From positions 1 to 30,271 of the forward strand of contig CAZWFZ010000001.1 in assembly GCA_964633455.1 (NCBI GenBank): 30,271 bases of DNA, in the 5' to 3' direction. Both the position numbers and the translations under genes were made by a program. The notes beneath the pieces were generated by a model. It did not search any database, had not been told where the DNA came from, and saw only the letters and a list, made by a program, of their open reading frames with translations. Of the stretch, positions 17,433-25,359 are shown one piece after another; the stretch's first letter is position 1, and every line of letters starts with the position of its first letter. This stretch comes from an uncultured Candidatus Peribacteria bacterium. Its GTDB lineage: Bacteria > Patescibacteriota > Gracilibacteria > Absconditabacterales > Absconditicoccaceae.

Positions 17433-18332
17433 ATGGAATATTACCTCAAAGGGTATTATGGCTACAAAAATCTCTGAGATGAACTCCTCTTGTTTGGAGT
17501 ACTTTCTTGGTTGGCTAACGAAGGAGAGGCTAAAAAAATTGTCATCGAATCAGGAGATCCTATCCGACTTACGCAGTGGCTCAAAAGACATCATGCAATG
17601 ATGCCAGTTGGAGTAGAAGTATATTGTGTCGGAAATAATAGTTCAGATATCTATAAAAAATATCACTTAGTTTTGGGATGAGGAGAGGTGCTGACCGATG
17701 CAAGGAGATTTCCTTATGGTGGATGGAATTACCTTATCAAACATTTTTGGCGTATTGTATTTGGAAAATTTTCACTCCTTGGCTGAATTGGTCGCCCAAG
17801 AATATTGACTACCAGACTCCTCTATTGGTTTATGCTTCCGAGAGCTAAACATATAGTAGTGAGAGATAAAGACTCTTTTGCCCTAGCATACATGTATCAT
17901 GATAATCCAATTTTTAGTGGAGACTTTGCCTATCCTATCGTCGAAAAAATTTTGGTGGAGAAAGATGAATGAGTCCCCTACAATATCATTAATCTCAACC
18001 CCTACAAACGAGATAGTTCGAGCAAGAAAAAGGTTGCAGAAATTATAGAAAGTCGTGGTGGAGATTGGATATTTATTGCAGGAGATGTGGGTGAAGATAT
18101 TCCACTATATCGTGAGTTGCAGGTATCTATGGAAACTATTTCCTTGTTTGATTGGACTTCCCATACGCTACGCGAAACCATTTCATTCTTAGCATCTGCC
18201 AAATACGGTTTAGCTACGAGATTACATATTCTTCTTCTGTTGCAGTTTTTTCATATTCCCCTTTCTCCGCTCGTCTACCAAGAGAAAATTACCAAAGTAT
18301 TAGGTATTCAAGAAGATACACCCACCCTCTAA
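17433..18332 (+). CDS. Polysaccharide pyruvyltransferase (CsaB-like), 299 aa
   Basis: GYYGYKNL[TGA]DELLL, VLG[TGA]GEVLTD, IVVRDKDS; TAA at 18330-18332. Confidence 0.85.
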
Positions 18333-18348
18333 ATAATCTCTTACCTGT

Positions 18349-19755
18349 ATGCACCCAAATATTTTTTTCCTCAGACGAGGATATATATTTTTTGGTACAA
18401 TATATGTATTTATTCTTTTTTCTTTTATTCAAGAATGAAATATTTCTTGGCCCATTTTTCTTGGAGCAATACTCATAGTATGCTGATCTATACGAAGATT
18501 TCATCCACAGATTTTTTTCTCTTTGTGTCTTTGAATCATTCTCTGATGAGTAAGTTCTCGGACACATCATCAAAAAAGTCATACTCTACCACACTTTTCT
18601 CCCCAACACGTACTTACCTGAACAGTTAAACAAAAAACAGCAATTGATCGTCGAAACATTATTACCACACAAGGAAATATACTTCTTACTACAAGTATTC
18701 CACTAAATCCAGGTGATAGTATAGCATTTCTCCCTGCGTTGCCTTGGTATGAAAAATATCCTTCTGTGCAAGCAGAGAACTACCAAAAACGACTACATCT
18801 CAAATGATATCAAGCAAGTCTCACGACGTATTCGCTCTCCCTACTGTGAAAACAAAAACCCGCTCTCCAAACATCTATCAGAGAGTATCTCCTCGATCGT
18901 TTTACTTTAGTGTGATTCAATCCTACTACTCAAGCGCTCTTGCGTGGCATGATTTGGTGAGATACGTCATCGCTTACGCGCACCCAACTCGATCAATTCG
19001 TAGCTAGTGGACTCATACATATAGTAGCAGTCAGCGGGAGTAATATTGCTTTTATTCTTCTCTTGGGTGCATTCTTTTTTCGACGAGTACCGGTGTCTAT
19101 CAGGTATGTTTTACTAATGCTCCTGGTATTTGGGTATGCAACAATCTGTGGGTGGGAAAGTAGTGTTGTGAGAGCAGTGTGTTTTGGAATGATTACGCTG
19201 GGATCACTTCTCCTATGAAGACCCAAAATGATGTGGTCGCTCTTTTGGATGGTAGCAGTCAGTATGCTGTGGCGACACCCTGATATATTTTGGTATGATA
19301 GAGGACGATGATTGAGCTTTTCTGCAACAGGTACTATCATGCTTTTTGCTACGTTATTTCCCTCACCATCGTCACGATATATGAAATGAGTTACTACGCT
19401 CTTGCTCCCGACCATAGCGGCTACGTTGGGCACCTTTCCCCTGCTGTTACTCTTCAATAATACTTATACCCTCTGAGGTATTGTGGCTAATCTCCTCGCC
19501 TCACTCCTCCTCCCTTGGCTTATACGAGGAGCAATAATAGCTATTTTCTTGTGAGCACGAACTATATATATACCTTTTTTTCCCTGACTTCTCAATCGGT
19601 GAGTGGCAACTCTTTTTGGTATCAGTGAGAAAACTATTCACCTTTCTCCCCAATTATTTACCTCCCCAAATACTACATATAGTATTGCACTTGGTGTGAT
19701 TGTTTTGGTGTGGTGATGAGGTTATATATTTTATAAGACAAGGAGAAAACAATAA
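18349..19755 (+). CDS. comEC: ComEC/Rec2 competence channel (no C-terminal metallo-beta-lactamase domain), 468 aa
   Basis: Missed by the track. SGLIHIVAVSGSNIA, ESSVVRA, YDRG[CGA][TGA]LSFSAT, IVANLL; many TM segments; TAA at 19753-19755. Confidence 0.92.
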
Positions 19756-19783
19756 ATACATCATTACACATAAATATACTCAT

Positions 19784-19855
19784 CAAGGATGCCTGGGCTC
19801 GAACCAAGTCCTTCGGCTTCGGAGGCCGATGTGCTACCAGTAACACCTCATCCTT
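19784..19855 (-). tRNA. tRNA with CCG anticodon, probably charged with Trp (tRNA-Trp(CCG))
   Basis: AAGGATG/CATCCTT acceptor, G73, GTGT-TACTGGTA-GCAC D arm, TCGGC-CTCCGAA-GCCGA anticodon arm, CTTGG-TTCGAGC-CCAGG T arm. tRNA status is well supported; the Trp identity is inferred. Confidence 0.85.
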
Positions 19856-20009
19856 ATGTATACCATTATTGTGTACTGATTTTATATCTATAAGCAAACT
19901 AACGTCTTTATGTATTTTTGACTCAGCTCCATAAAATTTCCGCAATCATTTTTGTAGCTACTCTTGAGTATACATAAAGTGAAACTTTGAAGTTCTCAAG
20001 TACTTTTTT

Positions 20010-20385
20010 CCCTGTCATGTCAGACAGAAATAGTCGTCAACTAGTCGTGTTTTGTCAGTCATTATCTGTCTTATTTTAGTATTCGCGTTGTGTCTCGTGT
20101 CTTCTTTATTTTCCTCTGTCAATATCCTGGGGTGTTGAGGAAGTAAACACTCCTTCACAAACCATTGTTTAGCTCCCTGTGTATGAACATATTACACCTA
20201 TTTTCTTGGATATAGCAACTAGTTTATGTGTCACAGACTGGCTAGTTGTTCGTAATGTGTTGTAGAGTCGTTGTTGTTCCTAGCAAAACGACCAGTGCTT
20301 TTTTGTGTGCGTTGCGTAGCTCATTAACATCTAGAGACCTTGCATTATGTGAATGAATGCGTACAAACGTGCACAGGGAGCAATC
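20010..20385 (+). ncRNA. Candidate structured 5' leader RNA of the S-layer gene
   Basis: Nested helices: 20172-20185/20368-20381, 20186-20195/20252-20261, 20214-20224/20240-20250, 20267-20272/20287-20292, 20302-20313/20356-20367. Their deviations are G-U pairs in the plus sense. Confidence 0.6.
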
Positions 20386-20425
20386 CTTTCATTATTTCTT
20401 TTTATATTTCTTTAATATTTCTAGC

Positions 20426-23400
20426 ATGAATTTGAAAAAATTCGTAGCAGGATTAACAGCTATGGCTGTAGCTGCGTCTAACTTCCTCGGGGGAGTAGCA
20501 GTTGCCCAGCTCAATGATCCTGAGTTCACCACCGCTCTCAATTGGGCGTATGAGAATGAGATGACCAAGTACAACACGGAAAACGGTTTCATGCCTTATG
20601 CTAACATCACAAGAGAACAAGCTTCTAAATTTGTTGATGTGTATGCTATGACCAACTTGTGTCTTTCTCCTGATGCTGATATGGATTGTGATTTCAGCGA
20701 CATCCCTGCAGACGAGTCTTTGGACGAGTATGTAATGTTGTCTTGCCAACTTGGTCTCTTCAAGGGATCAAATGGTAAATTTATGCCAACAGCGCAACTT
20801 ACTAAAGCTCAATTGCTCGCGGTTCTCGTAAGAGCAATCAAAGCAGCAGCTGGTGAAGAGCCTGTATCTGAGGATGCAACTCCTTGGTGGTCTAACTACT
20901 TTACTGAAGCAAAAGAACTCGGCTTGACTAAGGAAACCAATGTAAACGCATTGGATAAGCCTGTGACAAGATATGAGACACTTTTGATGATGTATAGAGC
21001 TAGAATCGAAGATCAATGTAGCACTACTAGTGATGATATCACTGACTTGCTCAAAGATCTCTTCGGTGATGACACAGACACAGACAACGGTACTGGTGAT
21101 GTAGCTCCTACATCTGATGGAACTCTCGAAATCAGTTTGAGTCCTACGACTCCAGCTGGTGACACTGTTCCTGGTTTGTCTAATGTTGTTGTTGCTGAAT
21201 TCGAGGTAACTGCTACAACTGAAGCAGTTATGCTCAACACACTCGAACTCAGAAGATACGGCATCTCAAACGACGATGCAGTAACGAGAGTTAGTTTGTT
21301 CTTGGCAGATGGTACAAGATTGACCAACGGTAAGTCATTCAATAGTGACGATACTGCTCTCTTGAACTTGAGCCCAAGATTGGAAGTAGGTGTTGGTGAA
21401 ACTCACAAAATCAGAGTAATTGCTGAGATTGGTAGTTCTGATGGTCTTAATGGTGCTAACAACCAACAATTCGTTATTGGTATTGAGTCAGCTAATGACG
21501 TAACTACTAATGGTGATGTTGATGGTAACTTCCCAATCAAAGGTAATGAATTCGACGTAGGTGGTGAAAACGCTCCTGAAATCGAAATCACTCCTGATGG
21601 AACTATCTCAGACGTTCAATTGGGTGAGAAGGGTGCAGAAGTTGCTGCTCTTACACTCGACAACAACTCATCTGACGATATCGAGTTGACTCACATTACA
21701 TTCACTGATGGTGAAGGTAATATTGACGACGCTATGATGAACTTCTCACTTGAATGTGATAGCGAGGAAATTGCTACTACTGAAAACGCAAACGGTGACT
21801 ACTTGAGCTTTACATTCGATCCTTACACTGTCAAAGAAGGTGAGTCAATCGATTGTAATATCTACGCTGATGTAGTTGCTAGCGCTGGTGAAGCAATTGC
21901 ACTCTATATTGATGAGTCTCTCGACGTTATGGGTTCTTCTGACTTCGGTTATGGAATTGCAGTTGACGTTGATAACTATCAAGAAGCACAAGCACAAGTT
22001 GTTGATATTCTCGCTGGTGAGTTAACTCTCGTTGAGCAGAATCTCGATGCTGATGAAGTGAGAGAGGATCAAGACGATGTAGTTCTCGGTGAATTCAAAG
22101 TGATTGTGAACAATGGTCAAGCTTTGTACATTGAAGACATCTCTATGGATCTCTTCTCTGATGCTAATGCTAGCTGAGTTGCATTACAACTAATCTTCGA
22201 AAACTTTGAATTGTATGATGTAACACACAATACAAGATACGACTTGAACAACACAAACGGTACTGGTATTGTATTGAGCGAAGAGAACATCGATATCTAT
22301 CTCCCAGATTCTGGTGAGACTGTTCTCCAAGTTAGAGCTGATACAGTTACTACCTTCCCAGGTAACGTTGCTGATATGGTAACAGTTCATCTCGAACTCG
22401 ATGCTAACCCAGCTAACGGTGACTTGGTAATCAAAGAGTCTGATGACGATGAGCAAGTTATGGACCTCGTTCCATCATTCATCTCATTTGATGGTGTTGA
22501 TTTGGTAGATTCTTCTGTAGACGTTACTGAGATCACATTGTCTGATACTTCTGTAGTAAGAGGTGCTGAGGATGTAGTTGCTCTTCAATTCCAGGTTGAG
22601 ACTGATTCAGTTTCATCTGCATTCTTGCAAGAGATCGCTATCCAAGGTACAGTTAACTTCAACACAGACGTTGTATCTGCAGTTTCATTGTTCAGAGGTA
22701 CTCCTAGTGGAACACACACTCTCGTAGAGTCAAATGGTGGATTTGATATCAATTCAAACTCTATCACCTTTGATAACTTCGATGAGATTGAAGTTCCTCT
22801 CAACTCTACTCAACCGTTCTTCGTAACGATTGATGTAGTTGATGATCCTATGAACGTTGGTTTAACTCTCGCATTGAGTGTTGATCAGACTCCACTTCCA
22901 AAGCTTGATGATGACAACAACAATGATATGGATGTTAATGTAACAAGTGCTGGTTCTAGAACTATGACTATCAGTAACTTCGGTACATTGGCTTGTGACT
23001 TCGACGTAAATGACGAAGAAACAGACATTCCTTCTATCGTTCTTGGTGGTGAAGAATCTAACTACTTGGCTAGCTTTGACTTCAATGCTCAAAACGAAGA
23101 CATTTGGGTAAGAGATATCTTGATTACTGCTTCTCCTGCTCTCAATTTCGTATCTGCATTTGAAGAAGTTATCTTGTCTGATGAAGATGGTAACGAATTG
23201 TACAGAGAAATAGTTACTTCTAATGCTATGTACCTCAATGAAATTGAGACTGCTAGCGGTGCTGAATTCATCATCACTGAAGGTAGTACTAACTTGTATG
23301 TATCATTGGTTGCATCTATCATCGGTAAAAACCAAAATGGTGTAGAAGCTGGTGCTTACAACCTCTCTATGAGTGTTCAACAAGCTGAAGGTGTAAGTTC

Positions 23401-24019
23401 TAATGACGATGTTGCTACTACTATTGTTCCTGTGAACTGTGGTGGTACATCTGAAGACTTTATGTCTAGAGCAGTTGCTATCTCTACTGTTGATCTCGTT
23501 AGCTCAGCTGGAAGTACTAGCTTGCCTACTTACCTCTCAAATGGTGTAAGTAACAAACTCGGTATCGTTAAGGTTGTTGCTGATTCATGGGATAACAATG
23601 ATCCTGCTGATGCTTCAAGCATTAACATTGAACTTACAGGATTGAGAGTAGAATTCGAAAACGGTACTGAAGATCCTGTAGCTGGTGTTACACTGAAGAA
23701 AGTTGGTAAGACTCTTACTACTACTCCACAAGCAGTAGCTGCTGGTACTAATATTGTTGTATTCGACATGACACAATTGTCTGCGGATTCTGACAATATT
23801 GTTCAGGAAGGTCAAACAGTATACTACGTGATCGAAGGTACTCCAGTTGTAGACGATCCTAGTGAATCAATTAGAATCAACTTGTCTGATTTGTATGGCG
23901 CAACCGCTAACCCATCATTCAGTTACAGAGGAGATTTCGTTGGTGCTTTGAGCACTAATGCTATCTACCTCGAAGATTCTGAAATCGATGGTATCTTGCT
24001 CGTAGACAACAACAACTAA
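20426..24019 (+). CDS. S-layer-like surface protein: signal peptide, three SLH domains, long acidic beta-rich repeats, 1197 aa
   Basis: Track ORFs 20357-22177 and 22211-24019 are one frame split by a single TGA. SLH-like segments FMPYANITREQ, GLFKGSNGKFMPTAQLTKAQ, LDKPVTRYE; strongly biased codon usage. Confidence 0.88.
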
Positions 24020-24051
24020 TCATTGTTTAGTCTATCAGTTAAGTACATATG

Positions 24052-24088
24052 GAGAAGTCCTTGGCCTCGGCCAGGGGCTTTTCTTTTT
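24052..24088 (+). terminator. Rho-independent terminator of the S-layer gene
   Basis: 14-bp stem GAGAAGTCCTTGGC / GCCAGGGGCTTTTC with CTCG loop and a T tract. Confidence 0.85.
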
Positions 24089-24157
24089 GGTGAAAAATAA
24101 GTATAATTAAATAAACAGTCTAATCTTTAATAGCTAGAAGTAGGTGATTTTTGATTT

Positions 24158-24193
24158 AAAGAAAGTGTCCTGCAAAGCAGGTCCTTTCTTTTT
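24158..24193 (+). terminator. Second terminator-like hairpin
   Basis: AAAGAAAG-TGT-CCTGC-AAA-GCAGG-TC-CTTTCTTTTT. Confidence 0.6.
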
Positions 24194-24227
24194 CGTAAAA
24201 AATGATATGGTATTAGTTTTTCTTTTA

Positions 24228-24537
24228 TGTATAAGCACTGTTGTTGAAAGTTAATCCCGCAGCTTACAGCAAGCGGGATCATTGCATCAATCATACTTCG
24301 TTATGAAGATGCAAAGATTCTTACTTCTATAAGTATTCGCATACCTTCGGTATACTTAACTTATAGAGGGTGATTTAAGGTTGAATAAGTGTTGGTAGGT
24401 ATAGTCGTTGAGATAAGGGTGGTTACCTCAAGGGTAATAAATGGAAGTAAGGCAAACCCGCTGACGCCTCCCTTATCAATAATACTGTTACTCGATCTGT
24501 CACATCATTTGACCTGGTTCGTATCCTGATTATATGC
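24228..24537 (+). ncRNA. Candidate ~300-nt structured RNA of unassigned family
   Basis: Four helical domains, two UUCG loops (24297-24300, 24346-24349), a long rod 24378-24515 with G-U pairs; no ORF. Confidence 0.55.
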
Positions 24538-24567
24538 TTTCCTATTTTATATTTCCCTATTTATGAG

Positions 24568-25359
24568 ATGAAAAGAGTTGTTTTTCTCCTGTTCACTACG
24601 TTCTTTTTGGCGGGTTGTTCACTTACCGACACCAAAGTAGCATTTGAGAACTTTATAAATAGTCTTCTCCAAAAAGACCAAGCACACGAACAGTGATTTG
24701 TGCTGACCGCGAGCGAAGTAAGTACACGTTTTTACCGTGATGAGACGGGCATTGACCTGAGTAAGCTAGGCCTAACTGCAGTTCCTGATCTCTGTGCCCT
24801 TGTAAGCCCAGAAGAGTACGATTTGGTGCGGTTTTTGGACCTTTCTCAGAATAAAATCAGGATCGTAGATCAAAATTTGGACTGTTTTCAGTATCTCCAA
24901 GTGATCAACCTCTCCTACAACGAGATTCAGCAAGTAGTGACACTGGGTACGCTCCCTAGACTCAAGGACTTGAGACTCCAAAAAAACCAAATAACTACTA
25001 CTGAAAATTTTCCTCCACTCACCGGATTGACGAGATTAAACCTTGCATACAATCAAATCACCGTAGTACAAGACCTAGAGAAACTTATTAACCTCAAAGA
25101 GCTTGAACTCCAACATAATGTGATAGAGGAGTTTATTGGTGCAGAGAAAATGCAACAACTCGAGCGTCTCAAGCTTGAATTCAATAAACTCTCCAACGTT
25201 GACTTCCTCAAGGAAATTAAATCTCTCTTCACCGTTAGTGTCGGAGGCAATCAACTTCCACCAGAAATCGAGGCAATTTGGAAGGCGTTTAGTCCTGTCT
25301 TCAAAGTGGGCTGATCAGGTAGCGTAGCAGCCACCGGCGCTGCATGAACAGGCCAGTAG
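24568..25359 (+). CDS. Leucine-rich-repeat lipoprotein, 263 aa
   Basis: MKRVVFLLFTTFFLAGC lipobox; ~22-aa LxxLxLxxNxI repeats; TAG at 25357-25359 after two further TGA. Confidence 0.88.

Follow-up and report, generated by a model that had tools for sequence, protein, structure and literature searches.

The sequence between the tRNA gene and the S-layer-type gene (19857-20425 of the window, the window being the whole 30,271-nucleotide stretch of DNA that was analyzed) is probably the promoter and leader region of the main S-layer-type gene in a code-25 bacterium of the Absconditicoccaceae (SR1), a region composed of tandem promoters and leaders with hairpins at their 5' ends and not of one large RNA domain. 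This assignment is built on the motifs, on their conservation, on their distribution over the genome and on the decay of the helices of a large fold that a sequence-only reading had placed at 20010-20385. In the proposed arrangement a distal promoter of the ECF type, termed P2, would start transcription near 20262 and produce a leader of ~165 nt opening with a stem-loop at 20267-20292, and a proximal housekeeping-type promoter, termed P3, would start near 20374 and produce a leader of ~53 nt opening with a hairpin at 20375-20388. Both leaders would end in a U-rich initiation region free of a Shine-Dalgarno sequence. The hairpins at the predicted 5' ends would shield an mRNA of very high abundance against decay that depends on its 5' end (genes for RNase J and RNase Y are both present), and the ECF-type promoter would link S-layer expression with a small envelope regulon. 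The start sites, the sigma factors acting at them and the stabilizing role of the hairpins are predictions throughout.

Genome, Genetic Code and Neighborhood

Long open reading frames are few in the window when it is translated with table 11, and with table 25 (TGA = Gly) coding sequence is dense. The genome assembly consists of 1.22 Mb in 187 contigs and is 88% complete, and the sequencing runs containing DNA of this genome are from wastewater and activated-sludge samples. The genes surrounding the region are the following.

17433-18332, CsaB-like pyruvyltransferase gene, upstream of comEC
18349-19755, same strand as the S-layer gene, comEC, the upstream neighbor
19783-19856, minus strand, tRNA gene with anticodon CCG (ARAGORN and Rfam), transcribed away from the S-layer gene
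20426-24019, plus strand, S-layer-type gene (1197 amino acids) with a signal peptide, an N-terminal SLH-like region (weak SLH match) and one TGA=Gly codon
24568-25359, plus strand, LRR lipoprotein gene, downstream of the S-layer gene

Relatives of the S-layer protein carry the database names S-layer-homology or SLH-domain protein of Candidatus Absconditicoccaceae. The true start of the gene is at 20426, where the reading frame opens with the signal peptide MNLKK.... An ATG at 20357, used by some gene callers, lies 69 nt too early and is an artifact of TGA read-through; the spurious upstream start (window 20357-20425; L051, L057 and L060 among the relatives' loci) adds 13-26 residues to database proteins such as P0004. 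TGA=Gly codons number 1 in 1197 in the S-layer gene compared with 19 in 468 in comEC, and most full-length S-layer orthologues have none, so that the reassigned codon looks to be strongly avoided in the most expressed gene.

The order comEC, tRNA, S-layer gene, LRR lipoprotein and ksgA (RrnaAD; window 17433-25359) is partly repeated on the contigs of three relatives, with comEC preceding the S-layer gene in L060, the LRR gene following it in L057 and L059, and ksgA present in L057. A tRNA gene is placed upstream of the S-layer orthologue in L022, L029, L030, L033 and L061 and, on the opposite strand, in L058-60 and L067. The upstream regions compared are those of S-layer orthologues from the genomes of 40 relatives and from metagenome contigs; the upstream windows of L026 (G021:C17) from -550 to -350 were left out owing to letters other than A, C, G and T, presumably a run of masked N. 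A metagenome scan for relatives of the S-layer protein found none, and a metagenome pattern scan matched only L066 (on the same contig as L061) and L067.

The Predicted ECF-type Promoter P2

Comparison of the upstream regions of the orthologues gives a bipartite motif, TGTCAC(A)-N14/15-TCGT(A), from which the following element was assigned and scored with a PWM from the relatives.

20229-20255, plus strand, P2, ECF-sigma-type promoter with -35 TGTCACA (20229-20235), a 14-nt spacer and -10 TCGTAA (20250-20255)

P2 is located at -197 from the ATG, within the claimed closing helix of the large fold, and has a predicted start at about 20261-20264. It reaches the maximum PWM score (21.75) and is one of five such sites in 1.22 Mb, compared with 0-2 for a reversed control. 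A single copy of the P2-type motif is present at -182 to -345, mostly at -190 to -220, in 20 of the 25 relatives with enough upstream DNA, and in L051 the element is 100% identical. Over 41 genomes of the family the exact pattern TGTCACA-N14-TCGTA has 82 matches compared with 3 for the reversed pattern. Judged from these sequence comparisons, P2 is real and orthologous across the relatives. It has the form expected of an ECF promoter, with bipartite -35 and -10 elements, CGT in the -10, a fixed spacer and repetition before several genes.

The other four perfect sites in the genome are positioned 42-48 nt before the ATG of genes for the LRR lipoprotein, an ABC exporter, an MscS-type channel and an unknown protein.

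24498-24523, plus strand, perfect motif 42 nt before the ATG of the LRR lipoprotein gene
C1:32364, perfect motif before the ABC exporter gene (ABC_membrane and ABC_tran)
C47:6117, perfect motif before the MscS-type channel gene
C101:627, perfect motif before the gene of a 473-amino-acid protein without a Pfam family

As the first of these is contained in the spacer 24228-24537, that spacer is probably in part promoter. The four targets and the S-layer gene seem to make up a small envelope regulon. Contig C1 carries three of the five perfect sites within 12 kb. The 13 relaxed matches and the 5 perfect ones all occupy the plus strand of their contigs and the minus strand has none; for the relaxed motif chance alone would give about 6 hits on each strand. 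The sigma factors encoded are RpoD and two of the ECF type (C78 and C151), proteins of 192 and about 200-225 amino acids that match the Pfam families Sigma70_r2, Sigma70_r4_2 and Sigma70_ECF.

The Proximal Promoter Candidate P3

A scan with a generic sigma-70 consensus found nothing on the plus strand, and the promoter consensus of the organism itself was therefore derived. The pattern CTTGMA-N16/17-TAnnnT is found 132 times in the genome, compared with 48 hits of the control, most often 20-40 nt ahead of open reading frames; this strong over-representation and the preferred position identify it as the ordinary promoter of the organism.

20340-20367, plus strand, P3, sigma-70-like candidate with -35 TTGCAT (20340-20345), a 16-nt spacer and -10 TACAAA (20362-20367)

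P3 also lies within the claimed closing helix, and its predicted start is at about 20373-20375. The pattern CTTGNN-N16-18-TA occurs at -74 to -165 in 21 of 23 leaders, that of the window included. The -35 TTGCAT and the 16-nt spacer agree with the sigma-70 form (TTGnnn, a spacer of 16-18 nt, TAnnnT). The -10 is without the final T in the window and in loci closely related to it (TACAAA, TACAAC), so P3 remains a candidate only, and distant orthologues have TAnnnT. P3 may be a weak promoter, or the bases conserved in it may belong to RNA elements of the P2 leader instead.

The relation between the two elements can also be read the other way, with TGTCACA-N14-TCGTA as a transcription-factor site acting on the promoter at 20340-20367, which would then be the sole start and give a ~53-nt leader with a 5' hairpin. 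In most orthologues the motif does precede the sigma-70-like element at a fairly constant distance of 80-120 nt, and no part of the region is conserved more widely than the sigma-70-like element with its hairpin. Against this, the four other perfect sites end 42-48 nt before an ATG, which leaves no room for a separate sigma-70 promoter, and the bipartite form with CGT downstream is the signature of an ECF promoter (PMC3426412). The conserved stem-loop of the close group starts 6-9 nt after the motif, and an RNA contig joining 20282 onward to the coding sequence, upstream of the P3 start, points weakly in the same direction. A factor site is accordingly a doubtful alternative to the tandem promoters.

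Leader Hairpins and the Initiation Region

With tandem promoters the actual leader is probably shorter than the ~380 nt that had been claimed, measuring about 165 nt and/or 53 nt with small hairpins at the predicted 5' ends. The elements of the predicted leaders are as follows.

20267-20292, plus strand, 5'-proximal stem-loop of the P2 transcript, GUCGUU (20267-20272) pairing with AACGAC (20287-20292), with an inner stem
20295-20383, plus strand, long irregular hairpin predicted in the P2 leader (MFE structure of 20261-20428), the 3' strand of which is the GGGAGC segment noted before as the partner of 20172-20185
20375-20388, plus strand, small GNRA-loop hairpin AGGGA-GCAA-UCCUU, with which the P3 transcript is predicted to begin
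20389-20425, plus strand, U-rich, unstructured translation-initiation region without a Shine-Dalgarno sequence, the only part with DNA matches in other genomes

The close group shares the sequence (G)UAGAGUCG, which starts 6-9 nt after the P2 -10 and opens a stem-loop. The fifth pair of the stem at 20267-20292 is U-A in the window, L051 and L061, C-G in L056 and L067, and G-C in L057; a hairpin of different sequence occupies this position in L022 and L058-60, and distant orthologues are without this stem-loop. Covariation in this stem-loop consists of the one variable pair and the hairpins of unrelated sequence. The architecture of the long hairpin is also found in L051 and L053 and is not recovered as a consensus in nine relatives, and over its full ~165 nt the P2 leader shows no significant structure (z -1.1).

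RNAalifold applied to the leaders of nine relatives returns the small hairpin at 20375-20388 as the sole consensus structure, the loops among the relatives being GCAA, GUGA and GCGA. All 21 leaders tested have a predicted stem within 40 nt after the proximal -10, formed by unrelated sequences such as CUGUGU-GGAG-ACACAG, CCGUGU-GAAA-ACACGG and AAGGA-GNRA-UCCUU. The segments following the proximal -10 in these leaders have a median MFE of -5.9 kcal/mol compared with -3.3 kcal/mol at 65 other promoter-like sites, a comparison in which the relatives are not independent of one another.

Before the start codons of 818 long open reading frames no enrichment of Shine-Dalgarno sequences (GGAG or AGGA) was found, and the U content at -25 to -12 in the same set rises to 40-50%. 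The U-rich stretch preceding the S-layer ATG is therefore the normal initiation region of this genome.

A tentative extension of these observations is that the ~165-nt P2 leader acts as a lineage-specific cis-regulatory RNA of the Absconditicoccaceae, in which the stem-loop (GUAGAGUCG...CGAC) and AAGGA-GNRA-UCCUU would be sites for a protein or an RNase and would set the stability or translation of the mRNA. In the latter hairpin a Shine-Dalgarno-like AAGGAG is paired with UCCUU, in an organism without a Shine-Dalgarno signal, and UCCUU resembles the usual bacterial 16S 3' end.

RNA Contigs and Decay Enzymes

Metatranscriptome contigs from three libraries begin within the leader at 20282, 20322 and 20388 and run into the coding sequence, and none of them covers 19857-20281. 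One RNA-library contig spans 20282-20598 without a difference, which suggests, weakly, that at least 144 nt of leader travels with the coding sequence. The contigs are compatible with starts near 20262 and carry little weight here, as contigs cannot show starts. Absent RNA cover further upstream is not counted as evidence because the DNA run compared also has a gap at 20040-20270 and the RNA contigs stop at various positions. Many metagenome contigs of the S-layer gene begin 18-180 nt before the ATG; the idea that such gene-sized contigs are transcript assemblies marking the start was dropped, as the L057 contig includes the promoter. RNase J and RNase Y are the decay enzymes encoded, and RNase E/G was not found in the 88%-complete genome.

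Stability and Conservation of the Large Fold

The sequence-only reading had described the region as one highly structured leader closed by a 14-bp helix, with the arms given here.

20172-20185, plus strand, 5' arm of the closing helix, pairing with 20368-20381 and lying upstream of both predicted starts
20368-20381, plus strand, 3' arm of the closing helix, overlapping the predicted P3 start and the small conserved hairpin

Much of this description is reproduced by calculation. The arms do pair, 10 bp of them as a perfect inverted repeat (20172-20181 with 20372-20381), and the nested helices are present in the MFE structure of 20172-20381 with lengths of 10, 11, 11 (6+5), 6 and 9 bp; the G-U pairs, counted before as nine, are 12 among 72 pairs. 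The fold of 20010-20385 is specific to the plus strand as stated (z -2.1, compared with +0.3 for the minus strand), the distance from the end of the structure to the ATG at 20426 is 44 nt, with a U-rich stretch in between, and the further hairpin proposed near 20110-20142 is seen at about 20101-20143. The absence of likeness to known RNA families is borne out by Rfam, which gives no match even at E up to 10. In the window only two tRNAs pass the gathering score of an Rfam covariance model, and over 19700-20500 at E up to 10 the models return only eukaryotic families at chance level (14-17 bits compared with cut-offs of 45-65). A known RNA in disguise (6S, RNase P and others) is rejected from the Rfam results and the lack of conservation.

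The folding energy of the core 20172-20381 is -68.1 kcal/mol with a z of -3.96, a value valid only for boundaries picked on the helix, and it is better than all 200 shuffles, as the sequence-only reading would have it. The fold is not exceptional for the genome. An RNALfold scan assigns z -3.14 to 20139-20391, and 14 other plus-strand loci (at least 120 nt) reach z -3.9 or lower in the same 30 kb, several inside coding sequence and three inside the S-layer coding sequence itself. As these loci fold better, the fold strength of 20139-20391 is within the genome background. Within 574 nt one perfect inverted repeat of 10 nt is close to what chance would give, and the same region has a second, unrelated one.

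The closest comparison is with L051 (81% protein identity), which is near-identical to the window from ~20195 to the ATG, the entire ECF-type promoter included, and is divergent with insertions and deletions further upstream. On this alignment the boundary of conservation fits P2. L051 retains 8 of the 14 pairs of the closing helix, 8 of the 10 of the next helix and 9 of the 11 of the promoter-spanning helix. Pair losses in the helices upstream of 20262 are mostly uncompensated, and simple identity of sequence accounts for the retention of the helices downstream of 20262. When L051 is folded, the counterpart of the 5' arm forms a local hairpin of its own and the GGAGC segment pairs with a U-rich strand downstream of the promoter, the same pairing being predicted for 20261-20428 of the window. 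The equivalent region of L051 is itself unusually stable (z -4.3), and there may be some selection for structure upstream of P2.

In L022, L061, L067 and L058-60 a tRNA gene sits 60-150 nt upstream of P2, so the 5' arm is without a counterpart in these loci, and more distant relatives contain nothing equivalent to the helices upstream of 20262. Covariation among homologues, on which the sequence-only reading had itself staked the structure, was found at no pair of the closing helix. When 19860-20425 was searched as DNA against 60 relatives, the U-rich tail preceding the ATG was the only part matched and the structured part gave nothing, and the element 19860-20425 is single-copy in its own genome. 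The 14-bp closing helix is most likely a lineage-specific, fortuitous complementarity.

The far upstream part of the claimed structure contains a weak promoter-like match.

20013-20039, plus strand, P1, weak promoter-like match TGTCAT-N15-TCGTCA (PWM score 10.0), inside a TGTC-rich stretch

At a PWM threshold of 11 the real matrix has 98 genome hits compared with 80 for the reversed control, which places P1 at chance level; it is degraded in L051 and probably has no promoter function. An origin of P1 by duplication of P2 was considered and found unsupported, there being no extended direct repeat. The TGTC-rich stretch (20013-20120) has 7 plus-strand copies compared with 0.74 expected and is confined to the window and its close kin (the upstream regions of L051 and L056); it could represent decayed promoter copies or regulator sites. 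The GACAG/CTGTC pairings that had been proposed as alternative structure at 20012-20070 belong to this stretch. An extra ~200 nt of TGTC-rich sequence between the tRNA and the promoter is peculiar to the close kin of the window.

One structured leader or cis-regulatory RNA of ~210-380 nt, closed by 20172-20185 and 20368-20381 and transcribed from a promoter near 20013-20039 or further upstream, is on this evidence improbable. Its merits are the core energy that no shuffle equals, the plus-strand-specific signal, the promoter-like match at 20013-20039 and the stability of the L051 region. They are set against the uncompensated decay of the closing and two next helices in L051, which folds differently, the tRNA gene found in distant relatives where the 5' arm would be, the chance level of P1, the two conserved promoter elements inside the structure and the fourteen loci of the window that fold better. 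What probably survives of the proposed stability or cis-regulatory RNA is an unusually long leader with stabilizing-type hairpins that has no Rfam description; the single ~380-nt RNA closed by a 14-bp helix is not supported.

The transcripts predicted from ~20262 and ~20374 lack the 5' arm 20172-20185, because both promoter-like elements sit inside the helix. A longer transcript with the 5' arm could arise by read-through from comEC or from an unrecognized upstream promoter. In a minor transcript of this kind the 5' arm might compete with the hairpins at 20295-20383 and 20375-20388 for 20368-20381 and so alter stability or translation. For such a switch speak the three mutually exclusive partners of the GGGAGC segment in the predicted folds and the position of comEC, which ends at 19755 on the same strand and after which a search detected no terminator-like site. 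The 5' arm is not conserved, however, and the change of G20376 to A in L051 keeps the pairing with the internal U-rich strand but breaks that with C20177. A switch is highly improbable.

An invertible promoter, in which a recombinase would flip the 190-bp segment with both promoters between the perfect 10-bp inverted repeats GCTCCCTGTG and CACAGGGAGC and cause phase variation of the S-layer, draws on the position of the repeats around the promoter elements and on the frequent breaks of assemblies near the locus but is rejected as very improbable, since the repeat is short, near chance, retained at 7 of 14 positions in L051 (compared by hand) and absent from other relatives, the neighboring genes (comEC, tRNA, S-layer gene, LRR lipoprotein) include no recombinase, and the contigs break at 20039, 20271 and 20282 and not at the repeats, with no inverted joint seen.

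Implications of the Promoter and Leader Assignment

The assignment of tandem promoters removes a false lead, as there is no large new RNA class at 20010-20385, and outlines, in a form open to testing, how an uncultivated episymbiont lineage with code 25 may regulate its most abundant envelope protein. The signature TGTCACA-N14-TCGTA is a family-wide ECF-type element of the Absconditicoccaceae that marks what appears to be a small envelope regulon. Together with this signature, the housekeeping consensus cTTGMA-N16/17-TAnnnT and the U-rich, Shine-Dalgarno-free initiation region should aid the annotation of Absconditabacteria genomes, and these promoter and initiation signals would be useful in choosing expression signals if such organisms become tractable.

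Comparison with Known Systems

Stem-loops at the 5' terminus stabilize mRNAs in the leaders of Escherichia coli ompA and of Bacillus subtilis aprE and ermC. The predicted S-layer leaders share with these a hairpin placed a few nucleotides from the predicted 5' end, an abundant envelope protein as the gene product and a genome that encodes RNase J and RNase Y. They differ in that the hairpins are short (5-6 bp at the base) and that the position at the 5' end depends on predicted starts.

The published signature of ECF41 promoters is TGTCACA-n16-CGTC (Wecke et al. 2012, PMC3426412). P2 has the same -35 heptamer TGTCACA, the same CGT in the -10 and a similarly small regulon per genome, and the spacing agrees within one base (15 nt between TGTCACA and CGT in P2). 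The -10 of P2 is TCGTA compared with CGTC in ECF41. A further difference is in the targets, which for ECF41 are neighboring carboxymuconolactone decarboxylase, oxidoreductase or epimerase genes and here are envelope or membrane genes (S-layer, LRR lipoprotein, ABC exporter and MscS). ECF41 sigma factors have a fused C-terminal extension, whereas both ECF sigma factors of this genome show only regions 2 and 4 in Pfam, and for lack of the extension the element is termed ECF-type and not ECF41.

The closest parallel to the arrangement as a whole is in the S-layer genes of Lactobacillus, for which two promoters and an mRNA-stabilizing 5' UTR have been described (review PMC3666127). As in slpA of L. 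acidophilus, L. brevis and L. crispatus, a highly expressed surface-layer gene is preceded by two tandem promoter elements, the predicted leader is long (~165 and 53 nt compared with a genome median of ~40 nt from -10 to ATG) and hairpins are predicted at 20267-20292 and 20375-20388, directly after the predicted starts. The two systems differ in that there is no sequence similarity, in that the present organism belongs to another phylum, uses code 25 and makes no use of Shine-Dalgarno sequences, and in that its distal promoter is of the ECF type and not a second housekeeping promoter, with starts that are predicted. By this analogy a hairpin-bearing S-layer leader would be the ordinary arrangement for such genes.
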